Shown in pieces: positions 3,243-58,665 of a DNA stretch of 64,000 bases. A program made the translations under genes and the position numbers. Under the pieces are notes generated by a model. It did no database searches, was not told where the DNA came from, and saw only the letters and a program-made list of their open reading frames with translations. The stretch covers positions 1 through 64,000 of the forward strand of contig CAIKKP010000060.1 of the NCBI GenBank assembly GCA_903828055.1, given 5' to 3'. The first letter of the stretch is position 1; every line of letters starts with the position of its first letter. This DNA is from an uncultured bacterium. GTDB lineage: Bacteria > Patescibacteriota > Andersenbacteria > UBA10190 > CAIZMI01.

Positions 3243-3327
3243 GCGCGTTTTCTCCCCTTATTCAAGGGGAGATTAAGAGGGGTTTGGCCGAGAATTATCA
3301 AAGGTTTCAATACAATTCATCAAAATC

Positions 3328-3368
3328 CCTCCCCGCCTCCCTTTGGATAAAGGGAGGAATTCGCGCGC
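3328..3368. repeat. CCCTCCCCGCCTCCCTTTGGATAAAGGGAGG hairpin element (family copy 1)
   Basis: 9-bp stem CCTCCCTTT/AAAGGGAGG with a conserved 5' CCCTCCCCGC flank. Near-identical copy at 53958 and related copy at 35080. Confidence 0.7.
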
Positions 3369-4120: not shown

Positions 4121-4235
4121 GGCCTCATCGTCTAACGGCTAGGACGAAGCGTTCTCAACGCTTAAATCGGAGTTCGCCCACGCACCATAAAGGTGCGGGG
4201 CGCCCAGAACCCAACGTGGTTCTTGGGCGATTCTC
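4121..4235 (+). pseudogene. 5' fragment of tRNA-Glu (positions 1-~63) interrupted by a 53-nt double-hairpin insert in the T-loop
   Basis: Identical to intact tRNA-Glu through GGAGTTCG. A 53-nt insert (4177-4229) follows, then ATTCTC, then unrelated sequence. No 3' acceptor strand is present. Confidence 0.75.
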
Positions 4236-4358: not shown

Positions 4359-4625
4359 CTCATTGATTAAGTTTTGCGAAGCAAAACTAATCCAAATGTA
4401 CATAAAACAGCCATCACGACGCGTGAGGGCTGTTTTACACAAGAATCAATGAACTCAAAGCATTACGCCAAGAGGCGGAATGCGACGAGCTACCTTTGTC
4501 TATTTGCGAAACTATCCTATGTACACAAAATGACCAAACATCCCGTTTGGTCATTTTGCACAAGAATCGAAAAACTCCGAGACTCGAGCACCCGACGGTG
4601 CTGAGTCTCGGAGCTACCATGTGAT
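4359..4625 (+). repeat. tRNA 3'-trailer structured element, two tandem diverged units
   Basis: Unit 2 (4516-4620) carries TGTACACAAAATGACCAAAC-loop-GTTTGGTCATTTTGCACAAGAATCGAAAAACTCCGAG plus a terminal CTCCGAG...CTCGGAG hairpin. Unit 1 is a diverged version. Both end in GAGCTACC. Confidence 0.7.
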
Positions 4626-4647: not shown

Positions 4648-5286
4648 ATGACAGACAAATTAAAAGACACATACAATAAAATCGCCAAAGAGTGGCACGA
4701 AGATCACCAAAACGATACTTGGTGGAAGGAAGGCACTGACGCCTTCATTGCCCACCTGAAGCCGGGAGCAACAGTTTTGGATGTTGGATGTGCGGGAGGC
4801 ACAAAAAGTAGCTACCTTACAAATAAAGGTTTAAACGTAACCGGTATTGATATTTCAAATAAACTAATTGACATTGCCAAACAAGAAGTGCCAGGCGCAA
4901 ATTTTTTGGTTTTGGATGTACATCAGATAGATACTTTAAAGGAAAAATTTGATGCTATTTTTATGCAAGCTGTTCTACTACACTTTCCAAAAAGTGAAAT
5001 CCAAGACATTCTCTCAAAAGCGACCGGGTTACTGAACGACGGAGGATATCTTTATGTGGCTGTGAAAGAAAAAATTGATGGCGGAATAGAAGAGGAAGTA
5101 AAAGTAGATGATGATTATGGGTTCGAATACGAAAGATTCTTCAGCTACTTTACCCTAAACGACTTTAAACAATACTTTAAAAATGTTGGCCTTGAAATTG
5201 TTTTTAAAGACATACTTCCTCCCTCCAGAACTGCGCGCAAAAGTAATTGGATGCAAATTATAGGAAAGAAACTTCCGACTAGCTAA
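4648..5286 (+). CDS. class I SAM-dependent methyltransferase
   Basis: Motif I VLDVGCAGGTKS and a Rossmann-like layout. Substrate unknown. Confidence 0.7.
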   Translation: MTDKLKDTYNKIAKEWHEDHQNDTWWKEGTDAFIAHLKPGATVLDVGCAGGTKSSYLTNKGLNVTGIDISNKLIDIAKQEVPGANFLVLDVHQIDTLKEKFDAIFMQAVLLHFPKSEIQDILSKATGLLNDGGYLYVAVKEKIDGGIEEEVKVDDDYGFEYERFFSYFTLNDFKQYFKNVGLEIVFKDILPPSRTARKSNWMQIIGKKLPTS

Positions 5287-5365
5287 AAAAGATTGCTTCG
5301 GCGTTGAAACGCCTCGCAAAGACGACATATCGTTCCTACTCCCTACACGCTACACCCTTCTCCCT

Positions 5366-7267
5366 TTATCTCGTCGGCGGAATCATATAGTAATTTAAGA
5401 GCTTGCTTGCGAGATCACGAAACATCGGCGCTGCGGTACCGGAAGCGAAACTTAGTCCCTTAGGATTGTCGAGAATAATTAAGACGGCAAATTTTGGTTT
5501 TTCAGATGGCGCAAAACCGAAGAAAGAAATTATTTTTTTATCGGCAGAATAACGGCCTGTTTCCGGATCAACCACCTGCGCCGTACCCGTCTTTCCTCCC
5601 ACGTAATACCCTTTTACCTTCGCCAACCCCGCCACACCATTCTCTACCACCGATGTCATCATCGCCGTAACTTTTGTCGAAGTTTCAGGAGTAACCACTT
5701 GTCTTATCAATCTAACCTGTGTCTTTTCCGTGTTTCCATTTGAATTACGAATTTCTTTAATAATATGCGGTTCTAACAACTGACCACCATTTATCACTGC
5801 CATCGCCGAGACCAACATCTGCATTGGAGTAACAACAACACCTTGTCCAAAACTTATCGTATCCAAATTGACTTCCGACCAAGTATCGGGAAGAGGTAAT
5901 GCGCGCGCGGCCTCACCCGTTAACGGCAATCCGGTTTTGTCACCTATTCCAAAATGACGCAACCCTTCGAATAACTTTTCCGCCCCAATTTTTTGCGCAA
6001 CCCACACCATACCAACGTTATTGGACTGCTCAAGAATTTGTGTCATTGATATTACACCCAAATGTTTTCCATCAAACGTATTAATAATATATTTGCCAAC
6101 CTTTAATGGTCCGGAATCATTCATTGTGGTATTTGGATCAATCAACCCCAAATCCATTGCAATCGACATTACCAAAGGCTTAAAAATTGACCCCGGTTCA
6201 AAAACATCAAGAAGCGCGTTATTCCGCATAACACTTACATCACGAATATCACCAAAATAATTTGGATCAAAAGTCGGATAATTAGCAATTGCTTTTATCT
6301 CCCCCGTATAAGGATCAGCAACAATAATACTGGCCTTTTCCGCGCCAAACTTATCTCTTCCCTGCTTGGCTATCTGTTCGGCGTATGTTTGCACAATCCG
6401 ATCGATCGTTAAAACAATATCCGCACCATCTTCTGCCGGCTTTAAGTCCATACTACTAACTGAAATCAATCTTCCAATCACATCACGCTCCGCCTCCATA
6501 AAACCGGAATTACCCTGCAATATTTCATTCATTGCCCCCTCAATGCCATACTCGCCTTTAATATTTAATCCATCCTGTCTCACATAACCCAATACTTGTG
6601 CCGCTAATGTTTGCTCCGGATAATATCGATCATAAAATTTTTCAAACCGTATTTCAGGAAGATTCAAATTCTTAAGATCGTTAATAAGCTGATCGTCAAA
6701 TCTTTGATAAGAAGCTATCAACGGTTCGTATGGATCTTCTTTATTACTCAATTTATTTTTCAATCTATTTTGAATATCTTGTTTTTCCTGTTCTGCCTGT
6801 TTAAGCACTTCCTCTCCAACTTTTTTTTCAGTATTATTTTTTCTAACCTCAATCTCTTCCACTGTATACTGTCCGGAGTCGTCTAAAAGGCCTTGCCTGC
6901 GAACAACTTCTCGTTGATTATAACGCCATAATATTTCCGATAATACTCCTACCGTATAATCTAAATTTTTTATTGCGCGAGGTTCTACATACGCTGATTC
7001 CGCCTGTCTTGTTGTGGCAACCGAGAATGGTTCCGCATCGTCCTTTTCAGACAACAAAATACTCCCCCGTCGTGGCAACAGGTCGGACGATCTAGTCCGT
7101 TGATTTTCCGCCAAGGTTGTGTATTTCTTAGTTTGCAATATCTGCAAATATCCAAGCCTTAATAATAACGCAATAAAAACTACAAAAACAAAAATAAAAA
7201 GTAATCGAAAACGATCTCCCTTTTTTTTCAACACATTTTTATCGCGTTTTATGGGCGGTTCATGCAT
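5366..7267 (-). CDS. ftsI: penicillin-binding protein 2 / FtsI-type transpeptidase
   Basis: N-terminal TM segment, SIFKP (SxxK) and KTGTA motifs, and its position after ftsL in the dcw cluster. Confidence 0.88.
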   Translation of the reverse strand: MHEPPIKRDKNVLKKKGDRFRLLFIFVFVVFIALLLRLGYLQILQTKKYTTLAENQRTRSSDLLPRRGSILLSEKDDAEPFSVATTRQAESAYVEPRAIKNLDYTVGVLSEILWRYNQREVVRRQGLLDDSGQYTVEEIEVRKNNTEKKVGEEVLKQAEQEKQDIQNRLKNKLSNKEDPYEPLIASYQRFDDQLINDLKNLNLPEIRFEKFYDRYYPEQTLAAQVLGYVRQDGLNIKGEYGIEGAMNEILQGNSGFMEAERDVIGRLISVSSMDLKPAEDGADIVLTIDRIVQTYAEQIAKQGRDKFGAEKASIIVADPYTGEIKAIANYPTFDPNYFGDIRDVSVMRNNALLDVFEPGSIFKPLVMSIAMDLGLIDPNTTMNDSGPLKVGKYIINTFDGKHLGVISMTQILEQSNNVGMVWVAQKIGAEKLFEGLRHFGIGDKTGLPLTGEAARALPLPDTWSEVNLDTISFGQGVVVTPMQMLVSAMAVINGGQLLEPHIIKEIRNSNGNTEKTQVRLIRQVVTPETSTKVTAMMTSVVENGVAGLAKVKGYYVGGKTGTAQVVDPETGRYSADKKIISFFGFAPSEKPKFAVLIILDNPKGLSFASGTAAPMFRDLASKLLNYYMIPPTR

Positions 7268-13102: not shown

Positions 13103-13690
13103 TTAAAATTTCTTAGCGATAACGTAAAAAAGATGCCAATGCTTTGGCGTACCGTTGGCGGTTTTATCGTCTTTCTCTTCTTCGTCAAACAAAATTACCT
13201 CCATGCCTGAAAGTAATTTTTCTACCTGTTCTTTGTTGTGAAAAGTCATCATTTTATCATCACTCCACGCATCGTGAACACCGAAGAATTGCCCACAAAA
13301 TATACCACCCTTTACAAGCGAACTTTTTATTTTTGTAAAAACAAGATCAAAACTTTCCGGCGAATTAAACGGCAAAGCATACATGGCCGAAGCAATATCG
13401 TATTCGTTTTTTGGAAACTCAAAATCAGCAAACGAAGAAACAAAGTAATGAAGATTTTCCGATTTTATCTCCTTCGCTTCTTTTGCCATTAGATCCGATT
13501 TATCAACAGCTATTACATCAAAGCCATTCTCTACTAAAAAACGTGTATCTTTCAATGCCCCGGCACCGACATCAATCGCCTTGCCCTTATTGACAACATA
13601 TTTAAGAGCTTTGACGAGAAGTTTTGAAGGGGGATTGTTTTTGGTAATTTGAAAATATTCCGACCAATCGTTCTTTTTAATTGATGCCAT
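13103..13690 (-). CDS. class I SAM-dependent methyltransferase (TehB/TPMT-like)
   Basis: Motif I IDVGAGALKDTRFLVENGFDVIAVD and a small single-domain methyltransferase layout. Confidence 0.65.
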   Translation of the reverse strand: MASIKKNDWSEYFQITKNNPPSKLLVKALKYVVNKGKAIDVGAGALKDTRFLVENGFDVIAVDKSDLMAKEAKEIKSENLHYFVSSFADFEFPKNEYDIASAMYALPFNSPESFDLVFTKIKSSLVKGGIFCGQFFGVHDAWSDDKMMTFHNKEQVEKLLSGMEVILFDEEEKDDKTANGTPKHWHLFYVIAKKF

Positions 13691-13819: not shown

Positions 13820-13933
13820 TGGTATCGCCCAGTACCACGTTGGGTACTGGGCGCCCCGCACCTTTATGGTGCGTGGGCGAACCTTCGACCTTTGCAATGT
13901 GAATGCAACGCTCTACCACTGAGCTATGCGCCC
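13820..13933 (-). pseudogene. 5' fragment of tRNA-Val (positions 1-~62) interrupted by the same 53-nt double-hairpin insert in the T-loop
   Basis: Identical to tRNA-Val up to GGTTCG. The insert (13825-13877, 50/53 identical to the Glu-locus insert) follows, then ATACC and an AT-rich 45-nt spacer before the intact tRNA. Confidence 0.75.
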
Positions 13934-33770: not shown

Positions 33771-33903
33771 GTTTATGATCCAAGTATAACCCAAAAGCTT
33801 GGTTCTAGACGATTCGCAAAAAATCAGGCATGCTAGCGAACATAGATTGACGCAAAGTTCGTCTTTGCGAGGTCGCATGCAAGCGTGCCGAAGCAATCTG
33901 TAA

Positions 33904-33975: not shown

Positions 33976-34101
33976 CTCGAGATTTGTTTCGCTCTGCGAA
34001 ACTATAAAATGTACACAAAATGACCAAACAGGACGTTTGGTCATTTTGCACAAGAATCGAAGAACTCCGAAAATACGCGTCAACAGACACGTATCTTCGG
34101 A
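33976..34101 (+). repeat. tRNA 3'-trailer structured element (copy after tRNA-Thr GGT)
   Basis: Starts at CTCGAG immediately after the discriminator base. GTTTCGC/GCGAAAC hairpin, then the 14-bp hairpin CAAAATGACCAAAC/GTTTGGTCATTTTG, then CTCCGAA...TTCGGAG. Confidence 0.75.
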
Positions 34102-34699: not shown

Positions 34700-34941
34700 T
34701 TGAATTAGTTTTGCTTCGAACACTAAAGGTAGCTCCGAAATTTTGCGTCTCTTGTCGCAATCTTTCGGAGTTCTTTAACTCTTGTGCAATAACCCTGTTA
34801 TCACCCGAAGGGCTCCGAAACTTTGCGCATCCGAACGCAAATATTTCGGAGTTCTTCGATTATTGTGCAAAACGACTCAACGGGATGTTGAGTCGTTTTG
34901 TGTACATCTTTTTTGTTTCGCGAAGCGAAACTTATCTCGAG
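34700..34941 (-). repeat. tRNA 3'-trailer structured element (copy after tRNA-Thr TGT) plus a partial second unit
   Basis: Minus-strand read CTCGAGATAAGTTTCGCTTCGCGAAAC...TGTACACAAAACGACTCAAC-ATCCC-GTTGAGTCGTTTTGCACAATAATCGAAGAACTCCGAA...TTTCGGAG, then a degenerate repeat ending GAGCTACC. Confidence 0.7.
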
Positions 34942-35013: not shown

Positions 35014-35079
35014 ATAGTAATCCAACTACCTTAAAGTTACTGTTTTTAAGATATTAGTCAAAGAGACTAAAAAGACAAA

Positions 35080-35112
35080 ATCCACCCCCGCCCTCCTTTG
35101 ATAAAGGAGGGA
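35080..35112. repeat. CCACCCCCGCCCTCCTTTGATAAAGGAGGG hairpin element (family copy 3)
   Basis: Related to 3328..3368 and 53958..53990, with a compensatory stem change (CCTCCTTT/AAAGGAGG). Confidence 0.6.
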
Positions 35113-39924: not shown

Positions 39925-40075
39925 CTTCGTCATCCTTGCGAACCCCGCACCCTTGTGGTGCGTGGGCGAAACAATCTCCCGCGTCTTGTTTTTTTGAGAT
40001 TGCCACGCCTCGCCCATTCTAAAGAATGGTCGATGGCTTGCAAAGACGACGCTTGGCCCTCGCTTTATTTAAGTT
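39925..40075. repeat. multi-hairpin intergenic repeat element, copy A (with nested small hairpin module)
   Basis: GCGAA-[CCCCGCACCCTTGTGGTGCGTGGG]-CGAAACAATCTC..GAGATTGCCACGCCTCGCCCATTCTAAAGAATGGTCGATGGCTTGCAAAGACGACG. The nested hairpin matches the first hairpin of the tRNA T-loop insert. Confidence 0.65.
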
Positions 40076-45174: not shown

Positions 45175-45214
45175 TCTATATTAATAGCGCACAAATTTAG
45201 TTGTGACCATTGAA

Positions 45215-45335
45215 GTAGTCGGGCGAGGCGAAGCAATCTCACCAAAATTACGACGCGGGAAATTGCCACGCCTTGCCCTCCGCCAGTTGGCGGACTCACG
45301 AATGGTCAATGGCTTGCAAAGACAACGGCAACTAG
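45215..45335. repeat. multi-hairpin intergenic repeat element, copy B
   Basis: GGGCGAGGCGAAGCAATCTC...GAAATTGCCACGCCTTGCCC...CACGAATGGTCAATGGCTTGCAAAGACAACG. The second hairpin loop is replaced relative to copies A and C. Confidence 0.65.
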
Positions 45336-46857: not shown

Positions 46858-46999
46858 GATTAACAGACACTAATTGTTACTCGTTCAATTGACACATACC
46901 TAACAAAGAACATGTTATTATGCTCCAAACCACCCAAATTGTCAATAGTGCAATTTAGTGGGGCTTGGTAAGATGAAAATTCATGGAAAACACTTCCGT

Positions 47000-47115
47000 C
47001 ATTGCGAACCATCGCTTTCAAGCGAGGCGAAGAAATCTCTTCAACTTTCAACACTGGAGATTGCCACGCCTTGCCCATTCTCACGAATGGTCAATGGCTC
47101 GCAAAGACGACGTTA
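47000..47115. repeat. multi-hairpin intergenic repeat element, copy C (upstream of dnaE)
   Basis: CAAGCGAGGCGAAGAAATCTC...GAGATTGCCACGCCTTGCCCATTCTCACGAATGGTCAATGGCTCGCAAAGACGACG. Confidence 0.65.
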
Positions 47116-47143: not shown

Positions 47144-47233
47144 ATGCCTGAGTTTATTCACCTCCACACCACTTCGCTCGCTTCGGCGAGCTACGAGGGG
47201 CAAGCCTCTCACTATCCTTTTCTACAAGTTAAA
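47144..47233 (+). other. upstream pseudo-start / 29-codon uORF whose first 8 codons duplicate the dnaE start
   Basis: ATGCCTGAGTTTATTCACCTCCACACC versus the dnaE start ATGCCAGAGTTTATCCATTTACACACT. It runs through a GCTCGC-TTCG-GCGAGC hairpin to a TAA 12 nt before the dnaE ATG. Confidence 0.45.
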
Positions 47234-47244
47234 TAAAAAATAAA

Positions 47245-50200
47245 ATGCCAGAGTTTATCCATTTACACACTCATTCCCACTATTCCCTCTTGGATGGTCT
47301 TTCTAAGGTGGACGATATGGTTAAGCGCGCGAAGGAACTTAATATGTCCGCCATTGGTCTTACCGATCACGGCGCGATGTATGGCATCATCGATTTTTAT
47401 TCCACCTGCAAAAAAAACGGCATCAAACCAATTATCGGTGTCGAAACCTACGTTGCCAATCGCAGTCACACGCAAAAAGAAACAGGTATTGATAATCGCC
47501 GTTATCACCTAACTCTCTTAGCCAAAGACATGACCGGTTATAAAAATTTAATTAAGCTGGTTACAACAGCTCACCTCGACGGTTATTACTACAAACCCCG
47601 TGTCGACAAAGAATTACTCCGCGCAAATCACGAAGGCATTATCGCCTTGTCCGGTTGTATCGGAAGCGAAGTAGGACGCGCTATCACCGGCGAAGGAAAA
47701 GAAAAGGCAATCCAAGTTATCCGTGAATATCAAGAAATTTTTGGTGTCGAAAATTACTATCTGGAAATTATGCACCATCCGGATGTGGATAATTTTGAAA
47801 AATGGCGTTTTATGTTAATCGAGCTTTCCCGCGAATTAAATATTCCCTTGGTTGCCACGCAAGATTCGCATTACCTCCGCCCAGATGACGCCGAAGCACA
47901 CAAGACACTCGTCGCCATTTCTACCAATACCGATGTCGGTGATACGGGAATTTTTGCAGGAAAAGGTCATTACCATTTTATTTCCACCGAAGAAGCAATG
48001 GAATGGTTTTCTGATATTCCGGAAGCCGTTACCAACACAAAAGTTATCGCCGATCGTTGCAATATTGAACTAACCCTTGGAAAATTCATTTTCCCAGACT
48101 TTGCACTGGAAGAAGGAAAAACGGCTGACCAAATGCTTGATGAATTAACACAAAAAGGGATGACTTTTCACGGTTTAACCAATGACACCGCAACAGATGA
48201 AAGACGCAAATACGAACTAGATGTCATTAAACAAAAAAACTACGCCCCTTATTTTTTGGTGGTTGCCGACTTACTGCGTTTCGCGCGCAAATCGGATATT
48301 TACACAACGGTTCGTGGCTCGGCTGCCGGATCACTGGTTGCCTATCTTTCTGGAATTACAAATGTTAACCCAATTGAATTTCAACTCCCCTTTGAACGTT
48401 TCTTAAACCCTTTCCGCCCATCCGCGCCCGATATCGATATGGATTTTGCGGATAACCGAAGAGGCGAAGTAATTGAATATGCCAAACAAAAATACGGCGA
48501 CGACAAAGTGGCCCAAATTGGAACATTCGGAACAATGATGGCCCGTGGCGCGGTGCGTGATGTGGCCAGAGCCCTAAATAAACCTTACGAACTGGGTGAC
48601 CGCGTAGCAAAACTTATTCCAATGGGTTCACAGGGTTTCCCAATGACGATCGATCACGCCATGGAAATCGAACCGGAACTAAAGAAACTTTACGACAACG
48701 ATCCGGAAATCAAACACATTTTGGATATTTCCCGCAAACTTGAAGGTACAATGCGCCACGTTTCCGTACATGCCGCCGGCGTCGTCATCGCCCCAAGGCC
48801 CTTGGTCGAATATGTCCCGATCCAACTTGATCCGAAAGACGGTGATCGACGCATTACGCAATATGACATGTACACCGTTGGCGAAGACGGAGTGGGCTTA
48901 ACCAAGCTCGACTTCTTGGGTATTCGCAACTTGGCAATCCTGGAAGACGCCGTGCGGTTAGTAAAACAGCACCACAATATTAAAATAGATATCGAACGCA
49001 TCCCCTTCGACGATAAAAAAACTTTTGAAATGCTAGCAAAAGGCGAAACGGAAGGATTGTTTCAACTTAACGGCGAGGGTATGACAAAACATTTAATGGA
49101 CCTGAAACCATCAACAATCCACGACATCAACGCCATGGTGGCACTCTACCGTCCGGGCCCAATGAATAACATCCCGGAATACATTGCGCGAAAACAAGGC
49201 CGTAGCCCAATCAAATATTTCCACCCGAAAGCGCAAAATTTCTTGGCCAAATCTTATGGCATTTTGGTTTATCAGGACGATTTAATGTTCACCGCCTTGG
49301 AACTGGCCGGCTACAACTGGGAGACGGTCGATAAATTCAGAAAAGCCATCGGAAAAAAGATTCCGGCCGAAATGGCAAAACAACACATAATCTTCGTTGA
49401 AGGTTGTCAAAAAAACAGCAATTTAACGAAAGACCAAGCCGAAGCAATTTGGAATTTATTCGAACCGTTTCAAGGTTACGGTTTTAACAAGGCCCATGCC
49501 GCTTGCTATGGACGCGTCGCGTTCCAAACAGCTTACATGAAAGCCAACTTCCCTGCTGAATACATGTGTGCCGTACTTTCCGCCGAATCCGGTGATATAG
49601 AAAAGATCGCGATTATTATCAATGAGTGTAAGCGGATGGAAATTCCCGTATTACCGCCGGATGTAAATTTTTCACATAAAGGTTTTACGGTTTTAAAAGC
49701 AAATGATCAAATTCCAAAAGATGAAATTCGTTTTGGACTGCACACAGTTAAAAATGTCGGCGAACACATTGTTGAAGCAATTATTGCCGAACGTGAAAAG
49801 GCAGGACCGTTCAAAGATCTAATCGATTTCTTTTCGCGAGTGCATTCGCGTGATCTTAATAAAAAGTCGGTGGAAAGCTTAGCCAAAGCCGGAGCCTTCG
49901 ACACGCTCGCCGAACGCAATCAAATTCTGGAAAATACCGACACCCTTTTGAATTTCAACCGCGATATTGGAAAACAACTTTTAACCAACCAAGCTAACCT
50001 CTTTGGGATGATGCCAGCCGAAGTGGCCAGACCAAAAGTTACTCTTAAATCTGTCGAACCGGCCACGCAAAAACAACGACTTAGTTGGGAAAAAGAATTA
50101 TTGGGATTATTTATTTCCGGTCACCCGTTAATGGATATTGCCCCGGCTCTTGCGGAGGCCACTACACAAATTGCCGACATAACTATTCATAATTCAAACG

Positions 50201-53957: not shown

Positions 53958-53990
53958 CTAATCCCTCCCCGCCTCCCTTTGAATAAAGGG
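53958..53990. repeat. CCCTCCCCGCCTCCCTTTGAATAAAGGGAGG hairpin element (family copy 2), 24 nt upstream of miaA
   Basis: 30/31 identical to 3328..3358. Confidence 0.7.
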
Positions 53991-54013
53991 AGGATACGAT
54001 ACGAATCATCTGC

Positions 54014-55018
54014 ATGAATACATATCAACCAGCCCCAAAACCACTCCTAACAATCATGGGCCCAACCGCATCAGGCAAGACCCAATTGTCTTTAGTGTTG
54101 GCCGAGCAATTCCAGGGAGAAATTATTTCTGCCGACTCGCGTCAGGTTTATTTTGGCATGAATATTGGCACGGACAAAATTGTTTCACGGGGAAAAATTG
54201 CCAGTTCGCCACTTGAACCGATTGAATACAATTCAATGCCCCACTACCTTATCGATACAATTACACCAAACCAACCATATTCGGCAGCGGATTTTGTAAA
54301 CGATGCAACAAAAGTGATCGCGAAAATTCATGAGAACAACCACCTACCGATTGTAATCGGTGGAACGGGTTTTTATATTCGCGCACTTACCGAGAAGAAG
54401 AACTTTGCATCAGTACCGCCGGATTTTGTTTTTAGAGAATGGGCAAACAAACAACCAGTGGAAAATCTGGCGAATGATTTACTTCAAAAAGATCCGATAT
54501 TGGCCGAGCGTATTGATTTAAAAAATCCAAGACGAGTAATTCGAGCTTTAGAGATAGCAAACTATGCGTCGTCTTTGCGAGGCCGCCCGCAGGCGAGCCG
54601 AAGCAATCTCCCGAGTTCCGCGTCCGCTGGGGCAATTCATGAATTTCCCCTACACGAGACCGCATTACCACCAACGCCTGATTTTAATATTCTCAAAATC
54701 GCCATCCATCGCCAACCCGAAAATTTGCGCGACCTCATCACTCAGCGCGTCGACAAACAACTCGAATTAGGACTCGTAGAAGAAATAAGAACCCTGATAA
54801 AACAATACGGCGAGCAGGCGCCGGGCCTTCAAGCAATCGCCTACCGCGAACTTTTTCCATTTCTGCGTGGCGAAGAATCGTTGGAAGCAGGAAGACAAAA
54901 AGTTATCAATGCCAACTGGCAATACTCAAGACGACAATTAACTTGGCTCAAGAAAGAACCCAACATTGTCTGGATTGAAAATGAAGAAGAAGCGATTGAA
55001 TTGGTAAAATCTTGGTAA
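54014..55018 (+). CDS. miaA: tRNA dimethylallyltransferase
   Basis: P-loop IMGPTASGKTQLSL and DSRQVY motif. Contains an insertion of about 20-35 aa derived from the multi-hairpin repeat family. Confidence 0.88.
   Translation: MNTYQPAPKPLLTIMGPTASGKTQLSLVLAEQFQGEIISADSRQVYFGMNIGTDKIVSRGKIASSPLEPIEYNSMPHYLIDTITPNQPYSAADFVNDATKVIAKIHENNHLPIVIGGTGFYIRALTEKKNFASVPPDFVFREWANKQPVENLANDLLQKDPILAERIDLKNPRRVIRALEIANYASSLRGRPQASRSNLPSSASAGAIHEFPLHETALPPTPDFNILKIAIHRQPENLRDLITQRVDKQLELGLVEEIRTLIKQYGEQAPGLQAIAYRELFPFLRGEESLEAGRQKVINANWQYSRRQLTWLKKEPNIVWIENEEEAIELVKSW
54565..54660. repeat. repeat-family segment (copy D) embedded in frame inside miaA
   Basis: CGTCGTCTTTGCGAG...GCGAGCCGAAGCAATCTCCCG... matches the ends of elements A, B and C. 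It encodes the SSLRGRPQASRSNLPSSASAGAIHEF insert. Confidence 0.55.
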
Positions 55019-55234: not shown

Positions 55235-56053
55235 TCATGCGGGAACCGACGACGTTCTCCTGAGCCTGGCGAAGTTTTCCCAAGCCTCATCACGTTTCAA
55301 TTTGACCAAAACCGCATCCGGCCCGCCCAAAGACAAGACCTTGGTCCATTCTGCAGTTTCTTGAATAGCGCATTCTTCTGCCACACGAATATCGCCCAAT
55401 TTCTCAAAAATCCCCGATTTCGTGCGGTACAGATTGGCTAGGTGATGGCTACCCTTCCCATCACAATCAATTTTGTACCTACTCATCGCCACCTCCAGAA
55501 GTCCCAATGCCATAGCGACATTTTCAAGACCCAGCGGGTCACCGATGTAAACCTGCGCCGCGTCACGGAACAAATTGGCGACCTCCACCCCTTCCTGCCC
55601 AATGATAGCCTGAAGGGTATTCAACATCGGATCATAGTTTCTCCAAAAATGGTAATTTTGATCACCCGCAAAATCGACAAACGCGCGCGCAACTGCCAAC
55701 CGGTCAATGATTCTTCCCGATTCATTACTACATAACACCCTACCGGACAATTCATACCGATAATCCGCCAGTAGGTACAACTTACACAACAATGCCCACT
55801 GGTCTTCACCCGCCGCTACGGCGTTTTTCATCGCTTCGGTAAAACGACCGAGTCGATAATGACACCAGGCTGCCCAACCAAGCGCTTCACTTATTGGATT
55901 TTGACCACCGGCCATCAGCACTTCCAACTGTGACAAAGCGCCGGCATAATCTTTTTCGTTAAAAAGCCGTTCGATTTCGGCAAATTTGTTCTCGTCCGAC
56001 ATGATTATTCTCCCGTGAAAATGAACACGTTTCGACCGTAAACATCCAAACAA
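55235..56053 (-). CDS. TPR-like hypothetical protein, paralog 1
   Basis: About 40% identical to 56260..57021. Both start MSDENK(F/Y)A. Confidence 0.5.
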   Translation of the reverse strand: MFGCLRSKRVHFHGRIIMSDENKFAEIERLFNEKDYAGALSQLEVLMAGGQNPISEALGWAAWCHYRLGRFTEAMKNAVAAGEDQWALLCKLYLLADYRYELSGRVLCSNESGRIIDRLAVARAFVDFAGDQNYHFWRNYDPMLNTLQAIIGQEGVEVANLFRDAAQVYIGDPLGLENVAMALGLLEVAMSRYKIDCDGKGSHHLANLYRTKSGIFEKLGDIRVAEECAIQETAEWTKVLSLGGPDAVLVKLKRDEAWENFARLRRTSSVPA

Positions 56054-56168
56054 CCGTCATATTTAAATATCACGGATACGGATTTTTGGCAAGAGAGAGA
56101 CGTGATTATGATATACGATTTATGATTTATGAAGGACGAATGTTTCGCGCCGTCGATTCATCAATCAT
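56051..56168. promoter_or_regulatory. 118-nt conserved promoter block, copy a (117/118 identical to 57071..57188)
   Basis: On the minus strand it contains TTGCCA, a 17-nt spacer and TATTTAAAT, plus GATTTATGATTTATGA direct repeats. Confidence 0.6.
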
Positions 56169-56195
56169 CATTCATTATTCGTCATTCATATAAAA

Positions 56196-56259: not shown

Positions 56260-57021
56260 TCACTTAGTTGCTTGCTGTACGAGTCGTTCGAGCCGTAAAG
56301 CGTGTCCAATGACACCTACACGACAATCCCTATATCCCTCATTTTGCGGATCATGCTGAATTGCTATCAACCACAACTTAGCTGATTTATTTGCAACTTG
56401 GTAAGCCGAAGGAACGTCACCGACGACTTCCATCACCTTACTCTTCCAAAACAGCGCTTCGGCCCGGTGGTGCGCGTTTTCGTCTGCGATGCCGTACTTC
56501 ATGATTGCGATTTCAAGTAGCCCAAGAGCAATAAAGAAATCGGCACTTGTAGTTGCATTATCCGCACATACCCGCGAGGCATCACGGAACAGGTGGCCAA
56601 CTTCGACCCCCTCATCCGGAGCTAACACAGAAACGTGAGCCAACATCGTGTTGTTATCTCGCCAGAAGACATTGTTCGGATCACGTGCAAAATCAATGAA
56701 AGCTCGTGCAATCACAACAAAATCACTAATCCTTGCCAGAGTCTCATGTACTTCCGTTTTGCTGACACTTTCATACCGGCAATCCGCTAACACATATGCT
56801 TTGCAAAGCAACGCTCTTTGGTTATTATCAGTGACACGATGCAGCACTTCGACTGCCTCTGCCAGATTTCCTAACCGAAAGTTACACCAACCAGCCCAAG
56901 CAAAATCCTCGTTGGCAAAACCGTCAACAGTCGCATAGGTCTCCAACTGACGTAAAGCCAAAATGTAGTTGCCTTTGTCGTAAAGATTCTTTACGATAGC
57001 ATACTTGTTCTCGTCCGACAT
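56260..57021 (-). CDS. TPR-like hypothetical protein, paralog 2
   Basis: See 55235..56053. Confidence 0.5.
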   Translation of the reverse strand: MSDENKYAIVKNLYDKGNYILALRQLETYATVDGFANEDFAWAGWCNFRLGNLAEAVEVLHRVTDNNQRALLCKAYVLADCRYESVSKTEVHETLARISDFVVIARAFIDFARDPNNVFWRDNNTMLAHVSVLAPDEGVEVGHLFRDASRVCADNATTSADFFIALGLLEIAIMKYGIADENAHHRAEALFWKSKVMEVVGDVPSAYQVANKSAKLWLIAIQHDPQNEGYRDCRVGVIGHALRLERLVQQATK

Positions 57022-57070
57022 GACCTATCTCCCATGAAAAAGGACTCGTTTCAAACACAGTGCCCAATAA

Positions 57071-57188
57071 CAACCGTCATATTTAAATATCACGGATACG
57101 GATTTTTGGCAAGAGAGAGACGTGATTATGATATACGATTTATGATTTATGAAGGACGAACGTTTCGCGCCGTCGATTCATCAATCAT
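57071..57188. promoter_or_regulatory. 118-nt conserved promoter block, copy b
   Basis: Near-identical to 56051..56168. Abuts the gatB stop codon. Confidence 0.6.
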
Positions 57189-58665
57189 TAATCGTCAATC
57201 CTAATTCAACGCGAATCATTTCCTGTACTTTTTGGGGATTGGCGCGACCTTTTGTTTCTGCCATCACTTTACCCATCAAAAATTGAACTACTTGCACCTT
57301 ACCGGCACGGGCCTTATCCACTTCCGCAGGATTAGCGTTCAACATGTCTTGAACTATCCGGCGCAATTGATCATCATCGCTCACTTGCCCCAAACCTTTA
57401 TCGGCAACAATATTCGATGGGTCACCGCCTGTTTTTTGCATAATGCGAAAAACTTCCGGCATAGCATTACGATTCACTTCCGCGCGATGCAACATCACAA
57501 TCAATTCCGCAAAATTTTCCGGACTTATTTTTGTATGACTAAAATCAGTTTTTTCTTCAGCAAGAATGTTTCGAAAATCACCCAATAAATAGTTCGCGGC
57601 TAACTTGTACAAACGGACACTGTCTCGTTTTTCTACATCTGAACGCTGTTCATTCCATGCCAAAATTTCTGAAAAAACATTTTCAGTATATGAGGCCAAC
57701 ATTCTGTCTTCCACCATTATTCTAACTTGCTCATCTGGGAGTTGGAACTGACTGATAAAACGCGCTTCTTTTTCATGCGGTAATTCGGGTAATGCTTCAC
57801 GCATTCGTTGAATTAATTCTTCGTCTATTTTTAGTGGCGGTATATCCGGTTCCGGAAAATATCGATAATCAGCTTCGTCTTCTTTCACGCGCTGTTCGAC
57901 TGTTTCTTGCGTCGCATCGTTCCAACCACGTGTGCTTTGTTTTGTTGGCGGATTTCCCTGTTGCCAAAGTTCGGTCTGACGCGCAATTTCATAAGTTAAC
58001 GCACGCTCCACCGCCTTAAAAGAATTAAGATTTTTACACTCCGTTTTGGGATTCAATTTCCCACCTATTTCGCGCATCGAAATATTCGCGTCAACACGAA
58101 GATCGCCATTTTCCATATCCGCATTAGATACACCAATATAACGAATGGTGCGTTGCAGGTCTTCCAAAAAGATTTTTGCTTCTTGCGGTGTTTTAATGTC
58201 CGGTTCAGTCACAATTTCTACCAACGGGGTCCCGGAGCGTGTGTAATCAACCAGTGTTCCACCGTCATGAATATTCTTCGCCGCATCTTCTTCCATGTGC
58301 GCACGTGTAATCCCAATTTCCTTTTCCTCATTGCTCACAAATACTTTTACTTTTCCTTCATAGCAAATTGGCTCGTCATATTGCGAAATCTGATAACCTT
58401 TTGGCAAATCGGGATAGAAGTAGCTTTTGCGGGAAAATGTCGTATGTGAGGCAATTTTGCAGTTTAAGGCCAGCCCCACCTTGATTGCCCACTCCACCGC
58501 TTTTCCATTGAGTACCGGAAGTTGTCCCGGAAAACCCATACAAATTGGGCAAACAAAACGATTCGCCTCCTCCGCTTCAGACACGTTCTTACACCCGCAG
58601 AACATTTTTGACTGGGTGTTGAGATGAACGTGGATTTCAAGGCCTATTACTGGTTCGAGATTCAT
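57181..58665 (-). CDS. gatB: Asp/Glu-tRNA(Asn/Gln) amidotransferase subunit B
   Basis: N-terminal PVIGLEIHVHLNTQSKMFCGC and a C-terminal GatB/YqeY domain. Confidence 0.92.
   Translation of the reverse strand: MNLEPVIGLEIHVHLNTQSKMFCGCKNVSEAEEANRFVCPICMGFPGQLPVLNGKAVEWAIKVGLALNCKIASHTTFSRKSYFYPDLPKGYQISQYDEPICYEGKVKVFVSNEEKEIGITRAHMEEDAAKNIHDGGTLVDYTRSGTPLVEIVTEPDIKTPQEAKIFLEDLQRTIRYIGVSNADMENGDLRVDANISMREIGGKLNPKTECKNLNSFKAVERALTYEIARQTELWQQGNPPTKQSTRGWNDATQETVEQRVKEDEADYRYFPEPDIPPLKIDEELIQRMREALPELPHEKEARFISQFQLPDEQVRIMVEDRMLASYTENVFSEILAWNEQRSDVEKRDSVRLYKLAANYLLGDFRNILAEEKTDFSHTKISPENFAELIVMLHRAEVNRNAMPEVFRIMQKTGGDPSNIVADKGLGQVSDDDQLRRIVQDMLNANPAEVDKARAGKVQVVQFLMGKVMAETKGRANPQKVQEMIRVELGLTIND

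Follow-up and report, generated by a model that had tools for sequence, protein, structure and literature searches.

Modular palindromic elements, probably of the CGTC-tagged REP kind, in a 64-kb Patescibacteria-like sequence

Introduction

What is the family of multi-hairpin segments of about 120 nt that recurs near prfA, rodA and dnaE in the 64-kb stretch of DNA analysed here (the window), and does it spread as DNA or act as RNA? A first-pass annotation left two readings side by side, a miniature non-autonomous repeat family and a structured-RNA family tied to the 5′ regions of these genes, and proposed a link to small hairpins found in tRNA-like sequences of the same window.

Patescibacteria-like organisms typically have small genomes. 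Several kinds of short palindromic repeat from other bacteria lend themselves to comparison. REPINs, which Bertels and Rainey reportedly described in 2011, are said to be REP doublets that form hairpins and are mobilised by RAYT transposases. RPEs are known from Rickettsia, and the BIMEs of E. coli are built from GTAG-type REPs with IHF, gyrase and Pol I as binding partners.

A further kind, the CGTC-tagged REP superfamily, was described by Di Nocera, De Gregorio and Rocco (2013, BMC Genomics 14:522; PMC3733652) and includes Neisseria dRS3 and Rickettsia RPE-4 and RPE-6, the latter two equated with CGTC-4 and CGTC-1 units. Its units carry an unpaired CGTC or TGTC tag (CCTC is tolerated), a stem starting with A-T and T-A, and a 3-nt tail with the consensus CCA; CGTC-1 to CGTC-4 have an uninterrupted stem of 8–9 bp and a loop of 4–5 nt. 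Most of them are joined, tags outward, in inverted dimers (“HH dimers”) with a gap of about 20 nt and commonly of two different units, and they occur in several phyla with no associated transposase. Some copies are intragenic and in frame, CGTC-1 copies encoding the peptides AFAGMT and RLRGND, and REPs in general lie mostly downstream of ORFs, where they may act as RNA hairpins (PMC3733652).

Results

Three inverted dimers of one hairpin unit

The full elements lie on the plus strand at 39928–40051 (element A, between the terminator-like hairpin of rpmE and prfA), 45211–45327 (element B, between a 263-aa ORF and rodA, both on the minus strand) and 46997–47112 (element C, upstream of dnaE). A profile built from these three copies recovers A, B and C with E-values of 6e-33, 1e-31 and 2e-34. 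Two motifs quoted in the first-pass annotation recur: GCGAGGCGAAGCAATCTC, allowing up to three mismatches, has 6 matches in the 64-kb window against 0.07 expected, and TCAATGGCTTGCAAAGACGACG has 3 against 0.00. The alignments keep an identical module order in A, B and C, and the three elements of about 110–125 nt with common ordered modules are real, far beyond chance. They stand out as GC-rich islands in a window of 43.5% G+C.

Each element is a near-palindrome whose halves are inverted copies of a single hairpin unit, a property that the first-pass annotation does not state. From head to tail, the unit reads as an unpaired YGTC tag, (A/T)TTGC, GAG, a variable inner hairpin, GAA or GTG, GCAAT and a CTC tail, over a length of 33–64 nt among aligned and regex-defined units (typically 35–55 nt). 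The 5-bp outer stem, (A/T)TTGC/GCAAT, is followed by a purine-rich internal loop with GA(G) opposite GAA/GTG and then by an inner stem that is variable (4–10 bp), GC-rich and sometimes nested, with loops of 3–7 nt. Two inverted units with their tags outside and a spacer of about 17 nt between them make up the full element of about 120 nt, the ends of which form perfect-looking terminal inverted repeats, CGTCGTCTTTGCGAG...CTCGCAAAGACGACG. Such an element can fold either as a pair of hairpins or as a single long hairpin; in the minimum free energy folds of A, B and C, the left arm pairs with the right arm in long imperfect hairpins (z −3.2 to −7.7). Of 119 regex-defined units, 42 belong to inverted pairs spaced by less than 160 nt, and the tags were outside in every dimer inspected directly (A and C of the window and those of loci L068, L090, L099 and L046).

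The left unit of element A (39929–39978, plus strand) has a degenerate head, GTCATCCTTGCGAA, an inner hairpin of the type that we call gamma, CCCCGCACC/GGTGCGTGGG, and the tail CGAAACAATCTC. Beyond the spacer (39979–39995) follows a right unit of the beta type (39996–40048, minus strand) with the inner hairpin CCATTC..GAATGG, which scores 36.8 bits (E 2e-6) against a covariance model of 40 distinct units. Element C combines two types in a heterodimer, with an alpha unit on the left (46997–47039, plus strand, 28.2 bits), a spacer (47040–47056) and a beta unit on the right (47057–47109, minus strand, 41.7 bits). Element B has a degenerate left unit in which only GCGAGGCGAAGCAATCTC is recognisable (45223–45240), a spacer (45241–45258) and a right unit of the beta type (45259–45327, minus strand) that reaches only 12 bits. 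The left units of A and B are too degenerate to be scored with the covariance model. A replacement of the second hairpin of B had been noted; the delta hairpin TCCGCC-AGTT-GGCGGA is indeed there, in place of only part of the CCATTC..GAATGG hairpin. The modules quoted in the annotation were located as described, except that the left arm of B is degenerate and that GTTGTGACCA is a flank conserved in a relative and lies outside the element. GTTGTGACCATTGA was considered as the left end of B and, in view of this conserved flank, dropped.

Single units extend the list of copies. The copy that had been reported in miaA exists as one unit (54570–54610, plus strand, 49.9 bits, E 2e-9), that is, half an element followed by a different palindrome; it lies in frame and encodes SSLRGRPQASRSNL. 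Two others had been missed. One, at 33860–33900 (plus strand, 38.7 bits, E 9e-7), ends 3 nt before the 5′ end of tRNA-Thr(GGT), and the other, at 5289–5324 (minus strand, 46.7 bits, E 1e-8), lies between convergent genes (4648..5286 on the plus strand and 5366..7267 on the minus strand) and is identical at 34 of 36 positions to the left unit of the miaA dimer in locus L099. The three-copy profile matched the miaA and tRNA-Thr half copies weakly. The covariance model identifies 30 units across 97 kb of related loci and six in the window, the latter with E-values from 2e-9 to 2e-4; a regex census of the window and the fetched loci counts about 95 credible units.

The hairpin is constrained

Pairing was measured on aligned units, and an end-anchored count, blurred by bulges, was set aside. 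Among 40 distinct units, 83.7% of the cells are paired, compared with at most 51% when the partners are slid. Six of seven inner-stem pairs have changed on both sides, whereas the outer stem is nearly invariant, and the covariation score of 0.242 (0.085 in shuffles) was reached by 0 of 500 shuffled sets. The inner regions also fold better than shuffles, with a median z of −2.7. The pairing excess, the covariation and the folding together indicate that the hairpin is constrained.

The unpaired tag, the internal loop and the tail are conserved in sequence. GTC is invariant in the 40 aligned units; the base before it is mostly C or T and in a few cases A or G among 56 distinct units, and the window units have CGTC. 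The first stem position is A-U in 26 of 40 units and the second U-A in 39 of 40. In the subfamily of the window, with the ends GTCTTTGCGAG...GCAAAGAC, T stands opposite T at position 1 (TTTGC/GCAAT), so that only position 2 is paired. The 3-nt tail is CTC, sometimes CTT or CCA.

Units, spacers and inner hairpins recombine

Four inner stems were distinguished: alpha, CCATCGC-TTTCAA-GCGAGGC; beta, CCATYGA-CCATTC-nnnn-GAATGG-GCRAGGC; gamma, CCCCGCACC-n5-GGTGCGTGGG; and delta, TCCGCC-n4-GGCGGA. Two metagenome loci, L068 and L090, show the alpha/beta pairing of element C again, with nearly identical units. A and B have related spacers, yet in reversed order relative to the unit types. The modular character proposed for the family therefore holds: units, spacers and inner hairpins have been recombined between copies.

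The window contains exactly three copies of the gamma hairpin, one in element A (39943–39966) and the others in truncated copies of tRNA-Glu (4177–4200, minus strand, as CCCCGCACC-TTTAT-GGTGCGTGGG) and tRNA-Val (13854–13877, plus strand). Over 28 nt, copy A and the tRNA-Glu site agree at 26 positions (93%). Because gamma is confined in the window to A and these two copies, the link drawn earlier between the two repeat systems stands. The accompanying idea that the small hairpin was inserted into copy A does not, as gamma sits there in the regular place of the variable inner stem. It is also the inner stem of ordinary units from other organisms (L068 8100–8145 and L097 631–671).

The truncated copies of tRNA-Glu (4121–4235, plus strand) and tRNA-Val (13933–13828, minus strand) share a common design, in which the tRNA runs for ~56 nt from its start, as far as GGTTCG/GAGTTCG, and is followed by two GC-rich hairpins and the rest of the T loop. 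The two hairpins are gamma and CCCAG(A/T)ACC-CAACGT-GGT(A/T)CT(G/T)GG. The 3′ acceptor strand is missing, and the intact tRNA lies ~50–60 nt downstream. That two different tRNAs have this design in common speaks for a mechanism or a function and against random decay.

An allelic series in MiaA

The closest named relatives of the MiaA protein of the window are from Patescibacteria (36–40% identity), and homologues that are 73–79% identical to it differ exactly at the insert. No insert is present in P0005 (L097), and P0006 has only the module GAIHELPLHE, which corresponds to a GTAG palindrome. The window protein and P0002 contain a unit plus the GTAG palindrome, and P0003 (L099) and P0004 (L098) contain full dimers of different subtypes. 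At the DNA level, the miaA dimers have the ends GTC(A/T)TTGCGAG...CCTCGCAAAGAC, with no target duplication. The second module of the window gene (54629–54655, minus strand), which encodes GAIHEFPLH, is a REP-like palindrome composed of GTAG and GGGAAATTCATGAATTGCCCC (minus strand GTAGGGGAAATTCATGAATTGCCCC); given this tag, the insert joins both REP super-types in the same MiaA loop.

The miaA unit of the window matches at 41 of 41 positions the right unit of the L099 dimer at the same place, a unit on the opposite strand, while the flanking miaA DNA of the two is about 80% identical. This difference points to recent copying, arm-to-arm conversion or strong constraint and does not fit plain vertical descent.

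The insert is not present in solved MiaA structures (PDB 2qgn). In an AlphaFold model (pTM 0.75), residues 190–216, which comprise the insert, form a loop with pLDDT below 50 between a helix (172–188) and a strand (224–231), and the rest of the model is confident; the loop is thus predicted to be disordered. The “empty” miaA allele of L097 (1879–1977) keeps GCGTC...AATGACGAAC at the insertion point, resembling the outermost bases of the two ends of the element, which could be an excision or deletion scar.

Gain and loss between close relatives

Locus L098 is syntenic with the window, and its MiaA is 77–78% identical. It carries a clean dimer insertion of ~100 bp between rplK and nusG, where the window has none, and at the rodA and dnaE sites, occupied in the window by B and C, the element is absent and unrelated modules are found instead. 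Locus L097 has a dimer after thrS, again with none at that place in the window. The comparison of orthologous sites suggested by the first-pass annotation thus separates close relatives, between which units are gained, lost and reshuffled. Its parallel suggestion, target-site duplications, found no counterpart at A, B, C, the miaA inserts or the rplK–nusG insertion. Insertion is tolerated between genes and, in frame, in the MiaA loop predicted to be disordered. Some of the presence/absence pattern could be due to deletion or gene conversion at recombination-prone palindromes.

Distribution across phyla

An exact 19-mer of the right inner arm matched 46 genome loci, about 30 of which have complete units with the same head and tail. 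Carriers include Neisseriaceae, Cardiobacteriaceae, Dehalococcoidia, Anaerolineaceae, Levyibacteriota, Atribacterota, Omnitrophota, Alistipes and Acutalibacteraceae, and the 11-nt head, the 10-nt tail and the purine-rich internal loop are identical in at least seven phyla. One Anaerolineaceae MAG has about 15 copies; the subfamily of the window itself was found in a few metagenomes. Pattern matches on viral contigs were mostly due to chance; 12 of the 119 have the full GTCW head (about 1 expected), indicating real units on contigs classed as viral. A BLAST search of plasmid and phage collections with element C gave no match.

In the Anaerolineaceae MAG (CAZDAW01; loci L003, L020, L021, L025, L029, L030, L032, L035, L042 and L044), the dimer is the core of a ~150-bp repeat with outer inverted ends of its own, CAAGTTGCTACCTTGAC ... 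ATCCAGGTGGCAACTTGG. This longer repeat, of which there are about 15 nearly identical copies, has the appearance of a composite element formed around a CGTC-type dimer. Tandem head-to-tail arrays of units or half units (GAGATTTTTCG...CTCAAAATGACGG) were seen in L028 (2049–2250), L015 (Cardiobacteriaceae) and L026 (4480–4559, Neisseriaceae), as against dimers elsewhere.

Discussion

An undescribed unit design, probably within the CGTC-tagged kind

The elements agree with the CGTC-tagged superfamily in the unpaired tag, the A-T stem start, the HH dimers and heterodimers, the intragenic copies and the occurrence in several phyla. They differ in having a 5-bp stem (ATTGC/GCAAT), a 2x3 purine internal loop and a variable inner stem of 4–10 bp. 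A conserved 3-nt tail is present, which mostly reads CTC where the published consensus is CCA, and motif scans of the fetched loci found no transposase. The encoded peptides, SLRG... and ...LAMT, are not in the published list of intragenic REPs, and Patescibacteria, Chloroflexota, Atribacterota and Omnitrophota lie outside the phyla reported (PMC3733652). As the units lack the uninterrupted 8–9-bp stem with its 4–5-nt loop and their peptides are not on that list, we file the family as a variant within the CGTC kind, with a unit design of its own that is undescribed. Literature searches for the family, with sequence strings and encoded peptides, returned only unrelated primer and peptide matches, and searches for palindromic elements in Patescibacteria returned nothing relevant.

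Other systems were compared as well. Like REPINs, the elements consist of two inverted palindromic units and a spacer, form one long hairpin, occur also as singlets and are mainly intergenic. REPINs, however, have a tag of the GTAG/GTGG type, which here is confined to the palindrome at 54629–54655, the remainder being YGTC; they co-occur with a single-copy cognate RAYT flanked by repeats, of which a motif scan of the 64-kb window and the loci found none; and their families are lineage-specific and vertically inherited, in contrast to the head and tail shared by at least seven phyla here. Rickettsial RPEs, compared by description, are likewise palindromes of ~100 bp inserted in frame in conserved genes, where they add a surface peptide, the protein is kept and presence varies among relatives; here the host is Patescibacteria-like and most copies are intergenic. 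E. coli BIMEs are likewise modular mosaics, in which a few types of hairpin unit and of spacer follow one another with alternating orientation, but they are GTAG-type with known partners, unlike the present YGTC-tagged family. Integron attC sites, imperfect palindromes in cassette arrays with R''/R' core sites (RYYYAAC ... GTTRRRY) at their ends, differ in that the ends found here, CGTCGTCTTTGCGAG and CTCGCAAAGACGACG, have no GTTRRRY core and there is no cassette array.

We consider the elements to be, more likely than not, non-autonomous palindromic DNA repeats of the REP-like, CGTC-tagged kind. The ordered modules, the construction of both halves from one unit and the presence/absence differences between relatives all fit the first of the two original readings, that of a miniature non-autonomous repeat family. 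By analogy with RAYT/HUH enzymes and REP doublets, the elements would spread in the form of single-stranded DNA hairpins, and an enzyme acting in trans would recognise them by the conserved unpaired tag, the tail and the internal loop. Arms and inner hairpins would probably be made uniform or swapped, inside one palindrome or from one to another, by template switching or gene conversion, and effects on transcripts, such as 3′-end hairpins, would be secondary.

Candidates for the enzyme were sought next to the units. Scans of ~0.7 Mb of fetched loci found neither a motif of a RAYT/IS200-type HUH transposase nor one of a small GIY-YIG nuclease, a weak negative at the scale of loci. An all-against-all BLASTP comparison of 1593 ORFs found no protein family recurring beside the units across organisms, only synteny among close relatives.

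Other readings

REP families are normally lineage-specific; a head and a tail that stay identical from phylum to phylum are unusual among them and could reflect function rather than selfish spread. The unit might serve as a pan-bacterial replicator, or else as a functional single-strand motif, with a universal partner. The identical head, tail and loop in at least seven phyla, Patescibacteria-like organisms with their typically small genomes among them, together with the failure to find a linked transposase, lead to this reading, which we regard as unlikely. If it were true, either a conserved housekeeping enzyme or an unrecognised nuclease would mobilise the unit, or hairpins would nest in hairpins with no need of a dedicated transposase.

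The elements might instead be REP-like sequences domesticated by the host for mRNA 3′-end protection, for termination or as sites for nucleoid or topology proteins, as has been proposed for E. coli REP/BIME. The unit at 5289–5324, which lies ~40 nt past the stop codon of a minus-strand PBP gene and is followed on that strand by TCTTTTTT, a T-run, would suit such a role, as would the reported preference of REPs for positions downstream of ORFs, where they may form RNA hairpins (PMC3733652). A scan for consensus terminators, however, flags no unit and yields a weak site in the spacer of B only; most units lack the T-run, positions differ between relatives, and the copies within ORFs could not serve these purposes. 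Individual copies such as 5289–5324 may serve as terminators or stabilisers, but this is no general role, and domestication of the family as a whole is doubtful.

A structured RNA, either a cis-regulatory leader or a small RNA, in the 5′ regions of prfA, rodA and dnaE would explain the covarying stems and conserved unpaired nucleotides, which are a classic signature of functional RNA, and the fold of the minus strand of element A (z −7.7). In 59 of 61 units, RNA folding favours the head-to-tail strand over the complement, and in the Patescibacteria-like loci (L064, L068, L090, L098 and the window) each of the seven single units that lie between co-directional ORFs has the sense orientation by crude ORF calls, which could reflect RNA-level selection or a replication-strand bias. 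Hairpins of single-stranded DNA, however, would give the same covariation, and the strand asymmetry arises from one conserved purine-rich internal loop, so that it is equally expected if single-stranded DNA is recognised and is not independent evidence for RNA. The element is absent upstream of rodA and dnaE in the syntenic L098. Units also occupy 3′ regions, spaces between convergent or divergent genes, a site beside a tRNA gene and an in-frame position in an ORF, and across phyla their orientation shows no bias (16 sense, 11 antisense). Rfam covariance models matched only tRNAs at the gathering score and nothing on the elements even at E up to 5. For these reasons a 5′-UTR regulator is improbable, and the tie to the 5′ regions of the three genes, as first proposed, is not borne out.

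A classical MITE, derived from an insertion sequence with a DDE transposase and moved by cut-and-paste with terminal inverted repeats and target-site duplications, is very improbable, since the size of 110–125 bp, the inverted ends and the extra inverted ends around the Anaerolineaceae dimer would fit it but there are no duplications at the sites listed above, intact single half units, which an element dependent on both ends would not predict, are common, and no related insertion sequence or transposase was found in the loci.

Implications

Read as CGTC-tagged REP-like repeats, the elements add Patescibacteria-like organisms and several other phyla outside the 2013 survey to the hosts of tagged palindromic repeats (REP, REPIN, RPE). 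CGTC-type repeats have no known mobilising enzyme, and identical unpaired motifs across phyla imply a conserved partner. The natural allelic series of MiaA (empty, single unit and dimer) could be used to study how such elements insert and decay. Repeats of this kind also give rise to spurious small ORFs, extra peptides in real proteins and broken metagenome assemblies, and recognising them improves annotation.

Other repeats in the window

Downstream of element C, the start of dnaE is duplicated (47145–47262). A 34-nt GC-rich module, TTCGCTCGCTTCGGCGAGCTACGAGGGGCAAGCC, breaks up the upstream copy, ATGCCTGAGTTTATTCACCTCCACACCAC, which runs into a stop; the start presumed to be real, ATGCCAGAGTTTATCC, is at 47245, and different gene callers selected 1152-aa and 1176-aa versions on sister contigs.

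A dispersed hairpin repeat, AATCCCTCCCCGCCTCCCTTTGNATAAAGGGAGGA, is found in the window at 3324–3358, 53960–53994 and 35078–35112 and in L098 at 13626–13660 and 1115–1150; in L098 it adjoins a CGTC-type unit and also occurs at the site that element B occupies in the window. Downstream of several tRNA genes lies a conserved module of ~75 nt (4505–4580, 33995–34070, 31054–31118 and 34843–34907) with the hairpin AAAATGACCAAAC...GTTTGGTCATTTT or AAAACGACTCAAC...GTTGAGTCGTTTT, which looks like a common tRNA 3′ flank or terminator cassette. Finally, a direct repeat at 55980–56188 and 56999–57208, with a period of ~1020 nt, 94% identity over 140 nt and similarity in the flanks, probably marks two tandem paralogous genes.
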